Below the pieces are notes generated by a model. It was given only the letters and a program-made list of their open reading frames with translations. It searched no databases and was not told the origin of the DNA. From the sequence record PX246730.1: a stretch of DNA of 64,000 bases, one strand, 5' to 3'. Shown piece by piece: positions 532 to 7,048 of this stretch (position 1 is the stretch's first letter; every line of letters starts with the position of its first letter). The translations under genes were made by a program, and so were the position numbers. Source of the stretch: a phage.

Positions 532-1947
532 ATGAGCGAGTTATTCAAACATGCGCACCTTCATGCAGGTCGAACTGAAAATGGTGCTGTAAACCATACT
601 TCATCAATGTCTGCTCTGGTAGACTTCTACAAAGCCGCTGGCTCAAGCCGTAGCAATGTAGAAATCTTACCAGACCTGTTCTACAAAGCTTTGCGTGAGG
701 ATGTTGATGTTGCAGTTCGTATTTTACTGCATATGCGAGATGTACGAGAAGGTATGGGTGAGCGTAAAGCCTTCAGAACTGTTTTGCTTCAAGCGATTGA
801 AGACAAAGTTTTAGAGCCTACACAGGTTCTTCGCATTATGGATAAGATTGCAGAGCTTGGTCGTTTTGATGACTTCAAAATCTTCGTAGGTACTCGTTTT
901 GAGACAGATGCCTTTAAGCATTTAGAAGCAGCATTACTAGACCCTGAGACAGCAGGTTTAGCAGCCAAGTGGTTACCACGAGTAAAACCACGACACAAAC
1001 AGTTTGTAAAACGTTTCTGTAAGTTTGCAAACTTAAGCGAGAAAGAGTATCGCACACTGTTATCTGCACTGTCTGATACGGTTGAGCAAAAAATCTCTGC
1101 TAATGAGTTTGGTAAGATTGATTACAGTAAGATTCCTTCTCTTGCTGCTGCACGTTACCAAAAACTCTTTAACCGTAAAGATGGAGAACGCTACAAAGCT
1201 TACATTGAGTCGCTATCAAAAGGTGAAGCTAAGATTAATGCTGGTGCTGTCTACCCATACGATGTGATTAAATCTATCAAGCATGGTAATGCAGATGTTG
1301 CTAATGAGCAGTGGAAAGCACTACCAAACTGGATGGCAGAAGGTGAGAACATCTTGTGTATGACTGATGTCTCAAGCTCAATGTCTTGGGTGAATCTTGG
1401 TTCAATCACGGCTCTTGATATTGGTGTATCTCTTGCCCTGTATGTAGCAGAACGCAATACTGGTTGCTTTAAGAATGAGTTAATGGTTTATTCAACAAAC
1501 CCTCATTTCATTGAACTGAGTGGTGATTTACGAAACCGTCATCGTCAGGTGATGCGACACGTTGAATATGGTTCAACTAACTTACAAGCAGCTTTTGACC
1601 GTATTCTTGAGACAGGTAAAAGAAACAACTTGACTCAGAAAGATATGCCAAGTAAGCTTATCATCTTCTCAGATATGGAATTCAATCAGGTTGATGGAGC
1701 TAATGGTCGTACAAACTTTGAAGCAATTCAGAGTAAGTACAAAAAAGCTGGATATGAGATGCCACAACTGGTATTCTGGTACTTAGCAAACCGTAATGGT
1801 ACTTGCGAAGTGTCTGTTAAGGATAACGGTGTAGCAATGGTATCTGGTTTCTCTCCAGCCACTTTAAAAGCTCTGCTTGGTGGTGAGAAGTTTGACCCAA
1901 CCAGCGTAATGCTCAAAGCAGTAATGATTGACCGTTACATCTGGTAA
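532..1947 (+). CDS. vWA-domain protein (471 aa), possibly TROVE/Ro60-like architecture
   Basis: C-terminal MIDAS-like motif D-V-S-S-S (CMTDVSSSMSW) typical of von Willebrand A domains; about 270 aa helical N-terminal region. Confidence 0.6.
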   Translation: MSELFKHAHLHAGRTENGAVNHTSSMSALVDFYKAAGSSRSNVEILPDLFYKALREDVDVAVRILLHMRDVREGMGERKAFRTVLLQAIEDKVLEPTQVLRIMDKIAELGRFDDFKIFVGTRFETDAFKHLEAALLDPETAGLAAKWLPRVKPRHKQFVKRFCKFANLSEKEYRTLLSALSDTVEQKISANEFGKIDYSKIPSLAAARYQKLFNRKDGERYKAYIESLSKGEAKINAGAVYPYDVIKSIKHGNADVANEQWKALPNWMAEGENILCMTDVSSSMSWVNLGSITALDIGVSLALYVAERNTGCFKNELMVYSTNPHFIELSGDLRNRHRQVMRHVEYGSTNLQAAFDRILETGKRNNLTQKDMPSKLIIFSDMEFNQVDGANGRTNFEAIQSKYKKAGYEMPQLVFWYLANRNGTCEVSVKDNGVAMVSGFSPATLKALLGGEKFDPTSVMLKAVMIDRYIW

Positions 1948-1994: not shown

Positions 1995-2056
1995 GTCCTA
2001 CATAGAAACGAAATGAGAGCTTTTCTAAGATACTGAAAAATATTTTAAAAAAGTTC

Positions 2057-2086
2057 TTGACAACCACTAAAAAATAATGTTAAAGT
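2057..2086 (+). promoter_or_regulatory. sigma70-like promoter candidate preceding tRNA cluster
   Basis: TTGACA 2057-2062, -10-like TAAAGT about 2081-2086, immediately upstream of first tRNA. Confidence 0.4.
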
Positions 2087-2112
2087 GGTTACATAGAGTT
2101 TGAAAAGTTTAT

Positions 2113-2186
2113 CTCTGTTTAGCTCAGCTTGGTAGAGCGTTCCGTTTGGGGCGGTAAGGCCGGAGGTTCAAGTCCTCCAACAGAGA
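2113..2186 (+). tRNA. tRNA-Pro(TGG)
   Basis: 7 bp acceptor CTCTGTT/AACAGAG, D-stem GCTC/GAGC, anticodon loop ttTGGgg, T-arm GGAGG-TTCAAGT-CCTCC, CCA encoded. Confidence 0.7.
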
Positions 2187-2196
2187 CCAAATTAAT

Positions 2197-2271
2197 GTTC
2201 CAGTAGACAAAATGGTATAGTCACCACTCTTTCAAAGTGGATATTTGAGGGTTCAAATCCCTTCTGGAACG
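2197..2271 (+). tRNA. tRNA-Glu(TTC)
   Basis: acceptor GTTCCAG/CTGGAAC, anticodon stem CCACT/AGTGG with loop ctTTCaa, T-loop TTCAAAT, CCA encoded. Confidence 0.7.
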
Positions 2272-2285
2272 CCAGTTTTGACAGA

Positions 2286-2352
2286 AGACCAATTGCAGCA
2301 AACTTAATCTTATTCATCTGAAGGTAAATCGGACAAAGAAGAGATTTGGTCT
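2286..2352 (+). repeat. spacer hairpin element copy a (CAGAAGACCAA ... TTGGTCTGG)
   Basis: inverted repeat AGACCAA/TTGGTCT flanking about 55 nt; conserved internal motif cagcaaaCTTAA; first of four paralogous copies. Confidence 0.6.
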
Positions 2353-2365
2353 GGTCATTAAGAAT

Positions 2366-2439
2366 TGCGGGTATAGAGAAAGGGCGTCTCACATGTCTCA
2401 TTAGCATGGTATCGGCAGGTTCGACTCCTGCACCCGCCT
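2366..2439 (+). tRNA. tRNA with CAT anticodon (Met, fMet or Ile2)
   Basis: acceptor pairs with ACCCGCC with 1:72 mismatch, D-stem GAGA/TCTC, anticodon stem CATGT/GCATG with loop ctCATta, T-arm GCAGG-TTCGACT-CCTGC. Confidence 0.55.
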
Positions 2440-2452
2440 CCAAATTTACAGA

Positions 2453-2511
2453 AGACCGTTTACAGCAATACTTATTAAATTTTTAGCGGAAAAAATTGAA
2501 AGATACGGTCT
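2453..2511 (+). repeat. spacer hairpin element copy b (AGACCGT ... ACGGTCT)
   Basis: same conserved 5' motif tttacagaagaccgtttacagcaa and 3' ggtctggtaat as copies a, c, d. Confidence 0.6.
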
Positions 2512-2526
2512 GGTAATACTAAACAT

Positions 2527-2600
2527 GGTTAGGAAGCACATAAGGTATGTGCGGTCGCCTGTTAAGCGAATGGCACAGGGTTCGAATCCCTGACTAACCG
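2527..2600 (+). tRNA. tRNA-Asn(GTT)
   Basis: acceptor GGTTAGG/ACTAACC (6 of 7 bp), anticodon loop ctGTTaa, T-arm CAGGG-TTCGAAT-CCCTG. Confidence 0.6.
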
Positions 2601-2611
2601 CAAAATTTAAA

Positions 2612-2698
2612 TGTGTCGTTATCCCGTAGATGGTAGCGGTGGGGACTGTAAATCCCTTGTCATTGAGACTCGGTAGGTTCGACTCCTACACGGCACAC
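2612..2698 (+). tRNA. tRNA-Tyr(GTA)
   Basis: acceptor TGTGTCG/CGGCACA, anticodon stem GGGGA/TCCCT with loop ctGTAaa, long variable arm, T-loop TTCGACT, CCA encoded. Confidence 0.7.
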
Positions 2699-2764
2699 CA
2701 ATTTTGAGAGGGCTATTTAGCCCCTCCCTTAAAGAGTTCTTACGAGTATTCTTTAAAGGAGCAG

Positions 2765-2833
2765 AAGACCAAATACAGCAAGTTACTTAAAATTTCAAGC
2801 CAATTTAATTTTGAAAAATTTAAAACTTGGTCT
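2765..2833 (+). repeat. spacer hairpin element copy c (AGACCAA ... TTGGTCT)
   Basis: conserved gcagaagaccaaatacagcaagttacttaa and cttggtctgg. Confidence 0.6.
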
Positions 2834-2852
2834 GGCTCAACAAATTTACAGA

Positions 2853-2978
2853 AGACCGTTTACAGCAAAACTTAAACAATCTATTTCTCTGGTAAAGAAA
2901 AGGCGAAGGTTCGATTCCTTCACTCGGCAGATGTCGAGTTGGTGTAATGGTAGCACTTAAGATGATAAACAACGGTCT
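2853..2978 (+). repeat. spacer hairpin element copy d, enclosing tRNA-like pieces
   Basis: inverted repeat AGACCGT (2853-2859) / ACGGTCT (2972-2978) flanks the permuted tRNA-Thr-like segment. Confidence 0.6.
2884..2957 (+). tRNA. tRNA-Thr(GGT)-like, apparently circularly permuted (3' two-thirds upstream of 5' third)
   Basis: 2884-2929: anticodon arm TTTCT-ctGGTaa-AGAAA, T-arm GAAGG-TTCGATT-CCTTC, 3' acceptor ACTCGGC plus discriminator; 2933-2957: 5' acceptor GTCGAGT (pairs 7 of 7 with ACTCGGC incl. one GU) plus complete D-arm GTGT-aatggta-GCAC. Confidence 0.35.
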
Positions 2979-3129
2979 GGTAATTATCTTTGTAGATAAG
3001 TTATTAAGCTTACCTGTGAGTATGCGACCACAAAGGGTGAAAGGGTAAATTCTAGATTTAAACCCAACAAGGCACATCGCTACAGACCTTAAGCAAGTCT
3101 GGGTAGCTTATCTACAAAGATAATTTAAT

Positions 3130-3202
3130 GGAAGTGTAGCAGAATGGTGATGCGGCAGACTTTTAATCTGACAGGCGATGGGTTCGAATCCCTCCACTTC
3201 TA
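3130..3202 (+). tRNA. tRNA-Lys(TTT) (probable)
   Basis: acceptor GGAAGTG/CACTTCT, anticodon loop ctTTTaa, T-loop TTCGAAT, CCA encoded; T-stem imperfect. Confidence 0.55.
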
Positions 3203-3209
3203 CCAATAT

Positions 3210-3283
3210 GGTTCAGTCGCAGATAAGGTAATGCAGGGGTCTCATAAGCCCTATGAATGTGGGTTCGATTCCCATCTGAACCT
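3210..3283 (+). tRNA. tRNA with CAT anticodon (Met, fMet or Ile2)
   Basis: perfect acceptor GGTTCAG/CTGAACC, anticodon stem GGGGT/GCCCT with loop ctCATaa, T-arm GTGGG-TTCGATT-CCCAT, CCA encoded. Confidence 0.65.
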
Positions 3284-3288
3284 CCAAT

Positions 3289-3361
3289 GCTGTGAAAGCA
3301 CATATGGATGTGCATTCGGCTGATAACCGAAAGGAAGAAGGTTCGAATCCTTCTCACAGTA
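3289..3361 (+). tRNA. tRNA-Ile(GAT)
   Basis: acceptor GCTGTGA/TCACAGT, D-stem GCAC/GTGC, anticodon stem TTCGG/CCGAA with loop ctGATaa, T-arm GAAGG-TTCGAAT-CCTTC, CCA encoded. Confidence 0.75.
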
Positions 3362-3379
3362 CCAATTTCAATAAAGTTG

Positions 3380-3408
3380 TTGACACTGAGATGTGACTAC
3401 TTTATAGT
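3380..3408 (+). promoter_or_regulatory. sigma70-like promoter (TTGACA-N17-TATAGT) inside tRNA cluster
   Basis: -35 TTGACA 3380-3385, -10 TATAGT 3403-3408. Confidence 0.55.
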
Positions 3409-3613
3409 AACCTTAGTTTTCGTTGCGTAGCGTCTATTTTGCAAATTTAAAATAAATGCAAACGACAATGTTTTTCTGGCAGTAGCTTGATAGGCTAAAC
3501 ACCAGTGAGGTCTTCCAATCCCTCATCAAAGAATTTGGCGTACTAGCCCACGGTATGATTAATAAGGTGGGCATCTTTAAGGGCTTTCTAAGAGAGTCTT
3601 TAAAGATTAATTA

Positions 3614-3692
3614 CGGGGCGTATCTCATCTGTCTTCTAAACAGACGTTAACCGAGTAAGTGGAGTATGCGGGTTCGAGTCCTGCCGCCTCGA
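3614..3692 (+). tRNA. tRNA-like element with TCT (Arg-type) anticodon loop, atypical D region
   Basis: acceptor CGGGGCG/CGCCTCG, perfect anticodon arm TCTGT-ctTCTaa-ACAGA, T-loop TTCGAGT, CCA encoded; only 7 nt between acceptor and anticodon stem, 22 nt before T-arm. Confidence 0.4.
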
Positions 3693-3838
3693 CCAATTTA
3701 GTTAGCAGATTACTTAGACGACCTAAGCGGGTCTTCCTGTAGGGAGGTGGTCTGTATCTCATGTTTTCCAGAACATGTAAATAATCTGAGAAGGGGCTTT
3801 ACAGTGTTGAGATAATACGGTAAGCTTCGAATTATAGT

Positions 3839-3918
3839 ATGGGACGATGTTAAGACTCTAAGGCATGAGCAACGGCTTCCAACACCGTTTCAAAGGGGTT
3901 CGACTCCTCCGTCCCATG
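3839..3918 (+). tRNA. tRNA, anticodon unresolved (possibly Trp CCA)
   Basis: perfect acceptor ATGGGAC/GTCCCAT, T-loop TTCGACT, CCA encoded; anticodon region ACGG-cttCCAaca-CCGT has a 9-nt loop. Confidence 0.45.
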
Positions 3919-3934
3919 CCAAAGTCTTATTAGG

Positions 3935-4022
3935 GGTAGGTAGCGGCTAATGGTAGCCAAACTGTCTTGAAAACAGTTGCCACTGTAGAGATACGGTGAG
4001 GGTTCGACTTCTTTACTTACCG
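3935..4022 (+). tRNA. tRNA-Ser(TGA)
   Basis: acceptor GGTAGGT/ACTTACC, anticodon arm ACTGT-ctTGAaa-ACAGT, long variable arm, T-loop TTCGACT. Confidence 0.7.
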
Positions 4023-4178
4023 CCTAATAAGATTTTAAAGCCAAGCTTCATTCGGATGTTGCTTTGGTATCCCTCGTGTTGTCGAACACACTAATAAAGC
4101 ACCTAGTAGGTGTCACGGAGAAGAGATAATATCAAGCTCTCCAAAGGTTCTAGTCACCGGATTAAACAAGACTATGCA

Positions 4179-4200
4179 AAGACCTTTTTAGGTCTTTTTA
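4179..4200 (+). terminator. hairpin plus T-run (possible intrinsic terminator or processing site)
   Basis: AAGACC-ttttta-GGTCTT followed by TTTA. Confidence 0.4.
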
Positions 4201-4278
4201 GAGGGCTTCTAAGGTTATTACAGCTTGTTGTGGAACCTTGTTGCTTAGGTTCTTAGAAGTTCTCTAAAAAGATTTAAT

Positions 4279-4353
4279 GGGAGATTGACGGTAATTGGTA
4301 AACCTATCTCGCTTAGAACGAGATGTTTGAGGGTTCGAATCCCTTGTCTCCTA
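4279..4353 (+). tRNA. tRNA-Leu(TAG), short variable loop
   Basis: acceptor GGGAGAT/GTCTCCT, anticodon arm ATCTCG-ctTAGaa-CGAGAT, T-arm GAGGG-TTCGAAT-CCCTT, CCA encoded. Confidence 0.55.
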
Positions 4354-4363
4354 CCAAATTAAT

Positions 4364-4436
4364 GCAGGTGTAGCAAAATGGTTATGCGGCTGACTCTTAA
4401 TCAGTAAGACGATGGGTTCAATTCCCTCCACCTGTA
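4364..4436 (+). tRNA. tRNA-Lys(CTT) (probable)
   Basis: acceptor GCAGGTG/CACCTGT, D-stem GCA/TGC, anticodon arm GCTGA-ctCTTaa-TCAGT, T-loop TTCAATT, CCA encoded. Confidence 0.6.
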
Positions 4437-4445
4437 CCAGATATT

Positions 4446-4518
4446 GGGGATGTAGTTTACATGGTTAAAACATAAGTTTTGCAAAATTAAGTACAGGGTT
4501 CAATTCCCTGCTTCTCCA
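4446..4518 (+). tRNA. tRNA-Ala(TGC)
   Basis: acceptor with G3:T70 wobble pair (Ala identity element), D-stem GTTT/AAAC, anticodon loop ttTGCaa, T-arm CAGGG-TTCAATT-CCCTG, CCA encoded. Confidence 0.65.
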
Positions 4519-4527
4519 CCAATTAGT

Positions 4528-4599
4528 GCATCCATAGTTTAAACGGGAAAATTACAGTCTTCCAAACTGAGGTTGAGGGTTCGATTCCCTCTGGATGCT
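4528..4599 (+). tRNA. tRNA-Gly(TCC)
   Basis: perfect acceptor GCATCCA/TGGATGC, anticodon arm CAGT-ctTCCaa-ACTG, T-arm GAGGG-TTCGATT-CCCTC, CCA encoded. Confidence 0.7.
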
Positions 4600-4608
4600 C
4601 CAAATAAT

Positions 4609-4682
4609 GCTGCTTTCGTATAATTGGCTATTACACATCCCTTGTAAGGATGGAAATGCAGGTTCGAGTCCTGTGAGCAGCA
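4609..4682 (+). tRNA. tRNA-Thr(TGT)
   Basis: acceptor GCTGCTT/GAGCAGC, anticodon arm CATCC-ctTGTaa-GGATG, T-arm GCAGG-TTCGAGT-CCTGT, CCA encoded. Confidence 0.75.
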
Positions 4683-4780
4683 CCAATTCAGAGGTCAAGT
4701 GAAAGACCGCTGGTGTCAACTGAAGACCGTAACAAATTCCACGGAGTTGAGTTAGCGGCACAACTTCAGACCTCTTTCAC

Positions 4781-4852
4781 ACTCGCTTAGTTTATATGGT
4801 AAAACACCACCCTTACAAGATGAAGAAAAAGGTTCAAGTCCTTTAGTGAGTA
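4781..4852 (+). tRNA. tRNA-Val(TAC) (tentative; weak anticodon stem)
   Basis: acceptor ACTCGCT/AGTGAGT, D-stem GTTT/AAAC, loop ctTACaa, perfect T-arm AAAGG-TTCAAGT-CCTTT, CCA encoded. Confidence 0.45.
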
Positions 4853-4856
4853 CCAT

Positions 4857-4931
4857 GTTCCAGTATCCCAATTGGCAGAGGATGCAAGCTCAAACCTTGT
4901 ACTAGTGACGGTTCGAATCCGTCTTGGAACA
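4857..4931 (+). tRNA. tRNA-Leu(CAA), short variable loop
   Basis: acceptor GTTCCAG/TTGGAAC, D-stem TCC/GGA with 11-nt loop, anticodon arm GCAAG-ctCAAac-CTTGT, T-arm GACGG-TTCGAAT-CCGTC, CCA encoded. Confidence 0.55.
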
Positions 4932-4939
4932 CCAATTTT

Positions 4940-5012
4940 GCAGGATTAGTTCAAATGGATAGAGCAACAGTCTACGAAGCTGTTAATAGGGGTTCGAATC
5001 CCTTATCCTGCG
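4940..5012 (+). tRNA. tRNA-Arg(ACG)
   Basis: perfect acceptor GCAGGAT/ATCCTGC, anticodon arm ACAGT-ctACGaa-GCTGT, T-arm TAGGG-TTCGAAT-CCCTT, CCA encoded. Confidence 0.75.
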
Positions 5013-5034
5013 CCAATTTAAAGAGGCTATTTAG

Positions 5035-5592
5035 ATGAGATATTTGAAGTATGCTTCATGGATTTTCTTAGCTTTGTTAGAGCCATTTGCAGCAATCTTA
5101 GCAGTAATTTTAGCACCCTTTGTGGTTCCATTCTACAGTGAAAAGAAAGGACACTTACCTTTTGGATTCAGATGGATGGAGACTTATGATAACCCAATTG
5201 ATGGTGACAAAGGCCACGTTGAGAGATGGGCTAAGATTAGAAAGATTGGTAAGCTCGGTGTTTATATGCAGAGAGTTGGATGGCTCTGGAGAAACAAAGC
5301 TTATAACTTCTCTTACCATGTGCTAGGAAGAGATGTAAAAGATGTTACTAAGTGGAAAGGTAATATCAACGTAAGTTCTAACCCTGAAGATAATCAGACA
5401 GGTTATCTCCTAATGTGGAACAGTAATGCTTGGGGATTATTCGCTTTTACCCCATCAATTAAAATCTTTGGTAAACAATTCTACTGGAGAATTTATGTTG
5501 GATGGAAACTTAAAAGTGTTGTCCCAGAAGAAAGAGCATTCTCAAGGGAAAGAGTTATGTTGGCATTCTTTATTCATCCACTAAGAAAGTAA
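5035..5592 (+). CDS. hypothetical membrane protein (185 aa) embedded in tRNA cluster
   Basis: ORF track; hydrophobic N-terminal segment (IFLALLEPFAAILAVILAPFVVPF); Trp/aromatic-rich. Confidence 0.5.
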   Translation: MRYLKYASWIFLALLEPFAAILAVILAPFVVPFYSEKKGHLPFGFRWMETYDNPIDGDKGHVERWAKIRKIGKLGVYMQRVGWLWRNKAYNFSYHVLGRDVKDVTKWKGNINVSSNPEDNQTGYLLMWNSNAWGLFAFTPSIKIFGKQFYWRIYVGWKLKSVVPEERAFSRERVMLAFFIHPLRK

Positions 5593-5600
5593 AGATTTAA

Positions 5601-5673
5601 AGGGGATTAGTTTACAAGGTTAAAACCTCGGTCTTTGAAATCGAAGAAGTTGGTTCAATTCCAACATCCCCCA
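5601..5673 (+). tRNA. tRNA-Gln(TTG)
   Basis: acceptor AGGGGAT/ATCCCCC (1:72 mismatch), D-stem GTTT/AAAC, anticodon arm TCGGT-ctTTGaa-ATCGA, T-arm GTTGG-TTCAATT-CCAAC, CCA encoded. Confidence 0.6.
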
Positions 5674-5678
5674 CCAAT

Positions 5679-5754
5679 GCTCCATTACTCCAATTGGCAG
5701 AGAGGCCAGACTTAAAATCTGTGTTATGTATCGGTTCGAATCCGATATGGAGTA
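5679..5754 (+). tRNA. tRNA-Leu(TAA), short variable loop
   Basis: acceptor GCTCCAT/ATGGAGT, D-arm paralogous to the CAA tRNA (caattggcaga), loop ctTAAaa, T-arm ATCGG-TTCGAAT-CCGAT, CCA encoded. Confidence 0.55.
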
Positions 5755-5762
5755 CCAAATTT

Positions 5763-5835
5763 AGCGGTATAGCATAACTGGCAATGCAGCAGTCTCTGAA
5801 GCTGTCCTATTAAGGTTCAAATCCTTATGCCGCTG
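5763..5835 (+). tRNA. tRNA-Gln(CTG)
   Basis: acceptor AGCGGTA/TGCCGCT, anticodon arm GCAGT-ctCTGaa-GCTGT, T-arm TAAGG-TTCAAAT-CCTTA, CCA encoded. Confidence 0.6.
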
Positions 5836-5869
5836 CCACTTCTAAGGGTTCTTACGAGAGTCCTTAAAT

Positions 5870-5942
5870 GTGGCCTTATCATAAAAGGTAATGACCCATG
5901 CTGTGAACATGGTCTATACGGGTTCAAATCCCGTAGGTCACC
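5870..5942 (+). tRNA. tRNA-His(GTG)
   Basis: acceptor GTGGCCT/AGGTCAC, anticodon arm CCATG-ctGTGaa-CATGG, T-arm ACGGG-TTCAAAT-CCCGT, CCA encoded. Confidence 0.75.
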
Positions 5943-5950
5943 CCAATTTA

Positions 5951-6024
5951 TAGTCCAAGTAGCTTATATGGTAAAGCGCGTGTCTGAAAAACATGAGAAG
6001 AGGGTTCAAATCCCACTGGACTAC
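5951..6024 (+). tRNA. tRNA-Phe(GAA)
   Basis: acceptor TAGTCCA/TGGACTA, anticodon arm CGTGT-ctGAAaa-ACATG, T-loop TTCAAAT. Confidence 0.7.
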
Positions 6025-6042
6025 CAATTTCAAAGGTGCTTA

Positions 6043-6777
6043 ATGAAAGAGATGACAGAACAAGGTAAGGAGATTTTTAATCTCTTAAAAACCGGTAGAG
6101 GGTTTTCTAATCCCCTTATTACTGGTGCAGCAGTTCTCGGTGGAACCGTAGCTGCCTCTACATCACTTGTAAGCTCTATTAGCTCTGTAACAGACCCTAC
6201 AATAAAAGATAAGCTTGTTGCTGCTGGGCTTACAACAGTCCTCCTAAACAGCTTTACAACAAGCCTGACAAGCACTACAGCAACTACTAAGACCCTGACA
6301 GACTACGGTCAAAAGTCTATTGATGAGTTTTCATCACGTATGCAGGTAGCAAAGGGATACTCCAATGTTATGGGTGCAGCAGGAGAACAAGTTGGTTGTA
6401 CACCATTCAGTGGTATTATGGGTGTTGCTACAGAGTATGGTCAAAAAGCTATTGACATGATGAACAGTACACTAGATAGTGTTAATGGTGTGTTAAGTGA
6501 CTTACAAGATGCTATTGATAAGGGTCTTGATACTGTTTCTGATTTAGCTAACCAAGCTGTTAGTAAGATTAATGAAGGTATCTCGAAGATTACAGCTTAT
6601 GCAGATGAAGTTGTGCAGATGATTGAAGAAGAAGCTGCCCTTATTGCAGAGTACCTTAAAACGAATATCAATGGGTTCTTAGCAGGTATCTTACCAGACT
6701 GGTTTGATGATGCCTGTAAAACTGGTGTAATTGACACTATTGCAACACCAGAAATGAAGAGCGCATTACAGAAATAA
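6043..6777 (+). CDS. hypothetical Ser/Thr-rich protein (244 aa)
   Basis: ORF 5827-6777 trimmed to ATG at 6043 because upstream part overlaps tRNA-His/Phe; no motif recognised. Confidence 0.5.
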   Translation: MKEMTEQGKEIFNLLKTGRGFSNPLITGAAVLGGTVAASTSLVSSISSVTDPTIKDKLVAAGLTTVLLNSFTTSLTSTTATTKTLTDYGQKSIDEFSSRMQVAKGYSNVMGAAGEQVGCTPFSGIMGVATEYGQKAIDMMNSTLDSVNGVLSDLQDAIDKGLDTVSDLANQAVSKINEGISKITAYADEVVQMIEEEAALIAEYLKTNINGFLAGILPDWFDDACKTGVIDTIATPEMKSALQK

Positions 6778-6778
6778 T

Positions 6779-6868
6779 GGAAGATTAACCCTAAAAGGTA
6801 AGGGAGCAGTTTGCTAAACTGCCAGTAGCTGAGAAATCGGTGTACCAGTTCAAGTCTGGTATCTTCCT
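6779..6868 (+). tRNA. tRNA-Ser(GCT)
   Basis: perfect acceptor GGAAGAT/ATCTTCC, perfect anticodon arm GCAGT-ttGCTaa-ACTGC, long variable arm, T-arm ACCAG-TTCAAGT-CTGGT, CCA encoded. Confidence 0.8.
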
Positions 6869-6875
6869 CCAATTT

Positions 6876-6948
6876 GAATCCGTGACAGAAATGGATATGT
6901 GCCTGTCTGCAAAACAGGTTTATAAGGGTTCGAGTCCCTTCGGATTCT
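6876..6948 (+). tRNA. tRNA-Cys(GCA)
   Basis: perfect acceptor GAATCCG/CGGATTC, perfect anticodon arm CCTGT-ctGCAaa-ACAGG, T-arm AAGGG-TTCGAGT-CCCTT, CCA encoded. Confidence 0.8.
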
Positions 6949-6988
6949 CCAAGTTATTTTACTCTCTCTCAATTAAAATAATAATAAT

Positions 6989-7048
6989 GCCCTGCTATAA
7001 GTATTCTTCCTTTCGCTACCGAAGAGTATTTTTAGACAGGGCTTTTTT
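6989..7048 (+). terminator. long hairpin plus T6 run, likely terminator at end of tRNA operon
   Basis: GCCCTG ... CAGGGC stem followed by TTTTTT (7043-7048). Confidence 0.55.

Follow-up and report, generated by a model that had tools for sequence, protein, structure and literature searches.

The tRNA-Leu Genes of the Window

A stretch of phage DNA of 64,000 nucleotides (nt; sequence record PX246730.1), referred to here as the window, carries three tRNA-Leu genes with the anticodons UAG, CAA, and UAA and with short variable loops. A long variable arm is the textbook hallmark of bacterial tRNA-Leu. The three genes lie in a cluster of 24 tRNA genes identified by ARAGORN within positions 2113-6951 of the window. 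The region 2000-7000 aligns over its full length with Felix O1-like phages (Felixounavirus, Ounavirinae) at ~97% identity and matches 315 phage records, the hosts of which include Escherichia, Salmonella, Shigella, Citrobacter, and Erwinia. Phages isolated, according to their records, on E. coli K-12 MG1655 are among these matches. The Felix O1 reference has the same three genes already annotated as tRNA-Leu in GenBank, with lengths of 78, 78, and 79 nt. The genes themselves are not new; their architecture is the point of interest.

All three genes are on the plus strand and encode the terminal CCA. tRNA-Leu(UAG) (ARAGORN anticodon tag) spans 4279..4356 and is 78 nt long, harboring the anticodon at 4314-4316, the variable loop TGTTT at 4324-4328, and the discriminator A at 4353. 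tRNA-Leu(CAA) (ARAGORN caa), also of 78 nt, spans 4857..4934, with the anticodon at 4891-4893, the variable loop ACTAGT at 4901-4906, and the discriminator A at 4931. tRNA-Leu(UAA) (ARAGORN taa) spans 5679..5757 (79 nt), with the anticodon at 5713-5715, the variable loop GTTATGT at 5723-5729, and the discriminator A at 5754. The variable loops are thus 5, 6, and 7 nt long, well below the stem-loop of more than 10 nt that characterizes class II tRNAs. The ARAGORN drawing moves the limits of the variable loop by one, depending on the closing pair.

Both the gene calls and the short loops rest on three independent methods, i.e., ARAGORN, Rfam, and a purpose-built covariance model termed R1. The Rfam tRNA model (RF00005) assigns 44.5, 43.6, and 47.5 bits to the UAG, CAA, and UAA genes, respectively, all of which exceed the gathering score of 29. 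The initial annotation, made by hand folding, had described short-loop tRNAs with Leu anticodons at these positions, and its coordinates, anticodons, and loop lengths all prove correct. The ends that it gave (4353, 4931, and 5754) are the discriminator bases and coincide with the R1 ends of all three genes and with the Rfam ends of the CAA and UAA genes; the Rfam match for the UAG gene covers 4280-4352. No program folded any of the genes with a long arm or assigned it a different anticodon.

The cloverleaf of tRNA-Leu(UAG) is its minimum-energy fold. Its irregularities are a C10/U25 mismatch and one additional nucleotide separating the acceptor and D stems. The CAA and UAA tRNAs share a D-stem of 3 base pairs (bp), a C13/A22 mismatch, and the D-loop AAUUGGCAG. 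Long variable arms are retained in the same cluster by tRNA-Tyr (2613-2700, 88 nt), tRNA-Ser(tga) (3935-4024, 90 nt), and tRNA-Ser(gct) (6779-6871, 93 nt).

In the description of type I tRNA-Leu, a Leu anticodon is carried on a tRNA-Leu body, and the variable loop is short but, with nucleotide 48 included, no less than 5 nt (PMC6614811); all three genes show these features. They belong to this kind, previously reported from mitochondria and Streptomyces, and the membership of phage genes in it is new. The literature search found no paper that describes the kind in phages.

Leucine Identity

Alignment A1 compares 16 arm-less phage tRNA-Leu (the three of the window and 13 others) with 8 long-armed ones, drawn from E. 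coli (leuW, leuX, leuZ, and leuV), phage T4, Vibrio phage Gary, and Salmonella phage PVP-SE1. The sole systematic difference between the two sets is a single gap of ~6-12 nt at the variable arm, which amounts to 9-10 nt in the window genes. The columns U8, A14, G19, A21, U33, A35, U48, G53, U54, C56, A58, C61, and A73 are invariant, and A15 is nearly so (≥90%). U8, A14, A15, and U48 are present in all three window genes, as is the discriminator A73 (4353, 4931, and 5754). The pairs U8-A14 and A15-U48 are judged on sequence only, and those of the UAG tRNA rely on the ARAGORN register, in which the extra nucleotide is placed before the D-stem. Within the D-loops AAUUGGCAG (CAA and UAA) and AAUUGGUAA (UAG), G18G19 and A20a occupy the positions that they have in the E. 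coli D-loop AAUUGGUAG. The T-loop UUCGAAU is common to all three genes, and its primary structure is compatible with the G18-U55, G19-C56, and U54-A58 contacts.

The D-arm typical of tRNA-Leu, with a 3-bp stem and a loop AAUUGGYAR of 9-10 nt, occurs among the window tRNAs only in the three Leu genes; the remaining short-loop tRNAs have 4-bp D-stems and other loops. The covariance model R1 was trained on 13 arm-less tRNA-Leu of other phages, included no window sequence, and was applied as an unfiltered scan. It assigns 70.3, 69.7, and 68.4 bits to the UAA, UAG, and CAA genes, respectively, followed by tRNA-Glu (57.3) and tRNA-Cys (55.8), such that the three Leu genes score at least 11 bits above any other window tRNA. 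That tRNA-Glu is the best non-Leu match is partly due to its acceptor stem, as the 5′ acceptor strand of tRNA-Glu (2197-2274), GTTCCAG, recurs unchanged in tRNA-Leu(CAA). In the published analysis of the Moogle-like phage Sf14, the tRNAscan-SE isotype models rank Leu first for the three orthologues, with scores of 67.4 (Leu_TAG), 49.1 (Leu_CAA), and 60.2 (Leu_TAA).

An alternative is that the three tRNAs are not leucine acceptors at all but class I tRNAs with drifted anticodons, or tRNAs charged by another synthetase that recode UUA, UUG, and CUA. Their variable loops are indeed as short as those of class I tRNAs, the 5′ acceptor strand of tRNA-Leu(CAA) is that of the phage tRNA-Glu, and for the Sf14 UAG orthologue the Ile2 (65.7) and Lys (63.4) models come near that of Leu. 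Identity to E. coli tRNA-Leu (45-57%) is not above that to other window tRNAs (59-67%); overall identity was, however, rejected as an isotype test because it is uninformative. This alternative is very improbable, since the Leu-specific D-arm, U48, and A73 are all present, the D-arm is limited to these three genes in the window, and Leu is the top isotype for all three Sf14 orthologues. Furthermore, recoding three codons that make up about half of the phage Leu codons would be lethal.

The leucine identity of the three genes is well supported, and no new recognition mode is needed to account for it. The initial annotation had proposed that either their identity is not Leu or LeuRS (leucyl-tRNA synthetase) recognition works differently, which is too stark a choice: the published E. 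coli LeuRS determinants are all present, and the arm is reportedly not among them.

With 71-73% identity, the CAA and UAA genes resemble each other more than either resembles any other tRNA of the window. Their paralogy had been deduced from a shared D-arm sequence, and this deduction holds only in part. The D-loop core CCAATTGGCAGAG is common to both, but the D-stems differ (TCC/GGA versus CTC/GAG); paralogy is plausible from the overall identity, but the shared D-loop, being the family-wide consensus, is uninformative. These two genes belong to a sub-lineage with the D-arm CC-AAUUGGCAG-AG, which is also found in Kolesnikvirus, the Lactobacillus phage LpeD, and Actinomycetota. The UAG gene falls with the GG-AAYUGGCAU-AC group (T5-like phages, PVP-SE1, and the Acinetobacter phage Rocket; 69-74% identity) and is closest to the T5-like and PVP-SE1 UAG genes (73-74%). 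The existence of two D-arm sub-lineages suggests that the arm-less state may have arisen or been acquired more than once.

Distribution and Structural Constraint

Short tRNA-Leu genes, 74-79 nt in length, occur in a range of other phages. The Kolesnikvirus phi63_307 carries them with CAA, AAG, and UAA anticodons, the T5-like phage VEc33 with UAA and UAG (locus L002, 3983-4059 and 9003-9079), and the Aeromonas phage AhP_Mru1 with UAG, CAA, and UAA. Three short tRNA-Leu genes are found in LpeD and a single UAG gene in Rocket, while PVP-SE1 combines a short UAG gene of 77 nt (locus L010, 10266-10342) with a long-armed UAA gene of 86 nt (L010, 7538-7623). In all six of these phages, the Ser tRNAs are long, as are the Tyr tRNAs where called by ARAGORN. 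Long-armed tRNA-Leu are found in T4, T5, and Vibrio phage Gary. T5 has one tRNA-Leu, a long-armed UAG (locus L321, 7625-7709), and its close relative VEc33 has two arm-less ones. An AAG anticodon, as in the arm-less tRNA-Leu of phi63_307 (locus L004, 7534-7611), is unusual for a bacterial-type tRNA-Leu.

A pattern that places the Leu-type D-loop and the T-arm at the spacing of class I tRNAs (AATTGGCAKA-N29-34-GGTTCGA) matches at least 120 contigs in IMG/VR. Among the matches listed, 107 of the 118 tRNAs called by ARAGORN have Leu anticodons, and these are 74-79 nt long. When the spacing is opened (N29-48), the first 120 viral contigs listed divide into 54 short and 66 long types, so that ~45% are short, a proportion that holds only for genes with the D-loop AATTGGCAKA and the T-arm GGTTCGA and is not a census. 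Among the matches listed, the other ("bystander") tRNA-Leu in the same viral loci comprise 29 short and 37 long ones, and the median number of tRNAs per locus is 8.5 for the short type and 2.5 for the long type. Why the arm-less form should be so frequent in phages is a question that these genes raise. Two of the viral tRNAs with a Leu-type D-loop and class I spacing among the IMG/VR matches listed have a CTA (amber-reading) anticodon, and the AhP_Mru1 cluster harbors CTA and TCA suppressor-type tRNAs (locus L003, 1900-1974 and 2796-2869).

The class I-spacing pattern also has at least 120 matches in bacterial and archaeal genomes, by which the possibility that the arm-less trait is phage-specific is ruled out; the arm-less type is uncommon rather than unique. 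The majority of those listed are tRNA-Leu(UAA) genes that stand alone, measure 75-77 nt, and belong to Actinomycetota, for example Nocardia, Mycobacterium, Gordonia, Rhodococcus, and Arthrobacter; the matches listed also include Planctomycetota, Acidobacteria, Chloroflexota, and Cyanobacteria. A few of the listed bacterial genes are part of arrays comprising 10-35 tRNAs. According to the cited literature, a long arm is confined to some of the tRNA-Leu in M. tuberculosis. The statement that bacterial tRNA-Leu normally has a long variable arm, on which the initial annotation relied, therefore applies to the host (leuW, leuX, leuZ, and leuQPV are 85-87 nt long) but is not universal in bacteria. 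Leu anticodons are present in 104 of the 110 bacterial and archaeal tRNAs listed, and, together with the proportion in IMG/VR, this consistency argues against drifted class I anticodons, as chance drift would not yield it.

R1 retrieved 124 family members, 114 of which are distinct, from 94 viral loci. Standard pairs occupy 98.6% of the stem cells of the distinct members, with changes on both sides in 20 of 20 pairs. The covariation score is 1.04, as opposed to 0.09-0.17 in controls with the partners displaced by 1-3 columns; because the alignment had been fitted to the model, it is somewhat biased toward structure. U8 (114/114), U48 (113/114), and A73 (113/114), at positions that the retrieval pattern does not impose, are almost without exception conserved, and the variable loop is 5 nt long in 102 of the 114. 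Similarly, among 118 dereplicated ARAGORN calls, the discriminator is A in 117, and 7 of 7 acceptor pairs are formed in 111. This pattern of sequence conservation argues that the viral family members are working tRNAs and not decaying copies.

The same evidence bears on whether the window genes could be non-translational, i.e., decaying pseudogenes, tRNA-like decoys, or processing elements. RefSeq marks the tRNA-Leu(TAG) of the T5-like VEc33 as a pseudogene, the window cluster holds degenerate tRNA-like remnants (3614-3692 and 3841-3916), and there are a D-stem mismatch in the UAG tRNA and an anticodon-stem mismatch or bulge in the UAA tRNA. Such an origin is nonetheless hard to credit in view of the strong compensatory covariation in the family, the intact acceptor stems and encoded CCA of the three genes, anticodons that fit codons over-used by the phage, and near-identity of the genes in hundreds of Felix O1-like genomes. 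For tRNA-Leu(UAA), 216 of 264 matching phage records are at least 99% identical. For annotators, the implication is that short phage tRNA-Leu calls are not pseudogenes.

Charging by Leucyl-tRNA Synthetase

The three genes are probably functional type I leucine tRNAs of a Felix O1-like virulent phage, a reading that can be held with some confidence. Most likely, the host LeuRS would charge them with leucine, because the E. coli enzyme reportedly recognizes its substrates by A73 and the tertiary core, with neither the anticodon nor the long arm being read. According to a review of tRNA identity (PMC9976931), the essential elements of E. coli tRNA-Leu are A73, A15-U48, G18G19, and A20a, the sequence and folding of the long arm are uncorrelated with leucylation, arm-less variants are active, and neither the anticodon nor the arm is crucial. 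The same determinant set for E. coli LeuRS is listed in two primary papers, including Fan et al. 2019 (PMC6614811). The latter study also established that in S. coelicolor a single LeuRS leucylates a type I tRNA-Leu(CAA) alongside type II tRNA-Leu.

Besides the pseudogene call in VEc33, several points weigh against functional leucine tRNAs that are charged by the host. In vitro, the type I tRNA-Leu(CAA) of S. coelicolor was not leucylated by E. coli LeuRS (PMC6614811), an enzyme described as charging type II tRNA-Leu only (Fan et al. 2019, PMC6614811), and earlier work, as cited in that paper, indicates that the leucine-specific domain of this enzyme favors a large variable loop. The D-arm of the UAG tRNA is irregular, and A37 replaces the G37 of the host tRNA. 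No aminoacylation data on any phage type I tRNA-Leu were found in the searched literature. The classical T5 charging experiments are uninformative on the arm-less type, since T5 itself has a long-armed tRNA-Leu; the T5 leucine-tRNA charging data were considered as indirect proof and ruled out on the ground that its tRNA-Leu(UAG) is long-armed, at 85 nt.

The variable loop of the Streptomyces tRNA is A44-C45-A46-G47-C48 (PMC6614811) and thus has C48. In contrast, the phage members have U48, which among the E. coli determinants pairs with A15; this base is invariant in A1 and present in 113 of the 114 viral family members. Judging from these bases, the difference at position 48 may be why the negative result with the Streptomyces tRNA does not necessarily apply to those of phages.

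The E. coli tRNA-Leu genes inspected are all long-armed, and the CAA gene has no blastn match in 5,426 complete E. coli genomes. tRNA-Leu of types I and II would by implication coexist in the infected cell. If the phage tRNAs are functional, the E. coli enzyme must charge them, given E. coli and Salmonella hosts. The sole biochemical study of an arm-less bacterial tRNA-Leu (PMC6614811) came to the conclusion that E. coli LeuRS leaves such molecules uncharged, and here phages of E. coli K-12 and Salmonella carry three conserved arm-less tRNA-Leu with the full set of E. coli determinants. The genes bear on the requirements of this enzyme, for which U48 versus C48 is a specific candidate.

Candidates for proteins that might assist in charging were sought among those adjoining or inside the cluster, which match only domains of unknown function and a PHROG "RNA-binding protein".

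Codon Supply and Loss of the Variable Arm

Once charged, the phage tRNAs would add decoding capacity for UUA, UUG, and CUA. The leucine codons of 63 window open reading frames (ORFs) are distributed as TTA 26.6%, CTT 27.6%, CTG 15.7%, TTG 13.3%, CTA 10.5%, and CTC 6.3%, at a window G+C content of 39.5%. In E. coli, CUG accounts for about half of the leucine codons, UUA for ~13%, and CUA for ~4%. By these general values, UUA and CUA are about 2-3 times more common in the phage than in E. coli. For each of the codons UUA, UUG, and CUA, the host has a minor tRNA encoded by one gene copy (leuZ, leuX, and leuW, respectively), and the Sf14 study rated all three anticodons as consistent with the codon preference of the phage. 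A role in codon supply fits these observations.

On the simplest view, only Leu among the three long-armed families would be expected to tolerate loss of the arm. Bacterial tyrosyl-tRNA synthetase depends on the long arm. Seryl-tRNA synthetase likewise reads it, as documented in the tRNA identity literature, including PMC9976931. Dependence of these two synthetases on the arm would account for its retention by the Tyr and Ser tRNAs of the clusters.

A different account of the arm-less form invokes counter-defense. Having lost the arm, the tRNAs would escape toxins or defense enzymes that read the class II arm while remaining leucine acceptors, and a usable tRNA-Leu pool would persist once the host tRNA-Leu is inactivated. 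This account is compatible with functional, host-charged tRNAs. Arm-keyed enzymes do exist: the toxin MenT3 depends on how long the arm is and how it is oriented, such that its preferred modification is lost when the loop is deleted and is gained by tRNA-Met when the loop is grafted onto it, and AbiEii, an abortive-infection toxin, seems to favor tRNAs with a long arm. However, MenT3 prefers tRNA-Ser, AbiEii left the tested M. tuberculosis tRNA-Leu unmodified, and no toxin is known to target enterobacterial tRNA-Leu via the arm. A published proposal holds that phage tRNAs evade tRNA-targeting defenses via changes in the anticodon loop. The high share of the arm-less form among the signature-matched viral tRNA-Leu (~45% of the first 120 contigs) and its occurrence in tRNA-rich loci are in keeping with counter-defense, whereas the solitary chromosomal arm-less genes of many bacteria indicate that the form is not phage-only, and some phages, such as PVP-SE1, carry both types. 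On balance, loss of the arm as a counter-defense appears unlikely.

In its broadest version, the arm-less tRNA-Leu would be not a deletion that is merely tolerated but a widespread phage adaptation that provides a private leucine-decoding pool hidden from AbiE/MenT-type nucleotidyltransferases and other arm-keyed factors of the host or of competitors. This is a speculative proposal, and its truth is doubtful. Were it true, E. coli LeuRS would have to accept the U48-type phage tRNAs, in conflict with the published type II-only statement.

Other Features of the Cluster

No further tRNAs were found in the gaps of the cluster by ARAGORN at relaxed settings. Two tRNA-like stretches on the plus strand are not called by ARAGORN, even when relaxed. 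The first, at 3614-3692, scores 33.4 bits on the Rfam tRNA model and has an acceptor stem, a T-arm, and the stem-loop CTGTC-TTCTAAA-CAGAC (TCT anticodon) and lacks a D-arm; the other, at 3841-3916, scores 18.6 bits on R1. Both may be degenerate or unusual tRNAs.

Felix O1 has a tRNA-Asp directly after tRNA-Tyr (locus L001, 966-1042), which is lacking from the window at 2701-3129, and the window tRNA-Met (3210-3286) occupies the place of the HNH endonuclease gene of Felix O1. On the basis of these differences, the tRNA content varies inside the genus.

Directly upstream of the cluster lies an ORF of 471 amino acids (532-1947, plus strand) with the Pfam domains DUF2828 and DUF7788 and a match to PHROG 850, "RNA-binding protein". 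Felix O1 ORF42 occupies the same position. Within the cluster, an ORF of 185 amino acids with DUF7338 spans 5035-5592 on the plus strand, and a part of it (~5098-5328) has DNA matches of ~66-73% in T4-like phages of Klebsiella, Enterobacter, and Escherichia.

Comparison with Known tRNA-Leu Types

The class II tRNA-Leu (E. coli leuW/X/Z/V, T4, and the UAG tRNA of T5) share with the window genes the anticodons, A73, U8-A14, and A15/U48, as well as the D-loop AAUUGGYAR, in which G18G19 and A20a are placed identically, the 3-bp D-stem, and the T-loop. They differ in that they are 85-87 nt long and form a variable stem-loop where the window genes have a gap of 9-10 nt. In addition, class II tRNA-Leu have G13/A22, whereas the CAA and UAA tRNAs of the window have the C13/A22 mismatch.

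One close precedent is the S. coelicolor tRNA-Leu(CAA), which also has a short loop (5 nt) and operates in a bacterial cytoplasm beside long-armed tRNA-Leu; U8-A14 matters for its charging, which also needs a loop that includes nucleotide 48 and is not shorter than 5 nt (PMC6614811). Unlike the phage genes, it is chromosomal and actinobacterial, has C48, and is served by a LeuRS with an adapted leucine-specific domain. The loops of the window CAA and UAA tRNAs are 6 and 7 nt long as compared to 5 nt in S. coelicolor.

Human mitochondrial tRNA-Leu(UUR) is likewise of type I, has no long arm, and bases its identity on A73 and A14 (PMC9976931). In contrast to the phage tRNAs, it is organellar and floppy and has a dedicated LeuRS, and there is no specific sequence relationship between it and the phage genes.

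The minimalist E. coli tRNA-Leu constructs (Larkin et al. 2002, as summarized in PMC9976931) are arm-less and keep A73 and the D/T-loop core, as the phage tRNAs do, and according to that summary are reportedly still leucylated by E. coli LeuRS. By the same summary, they differ from the phage tRNAs in being engineered, and some also lack the anticodon arm. The phage genes offer natural compact tRNA-Leu scaffolds for tRNA engineering.

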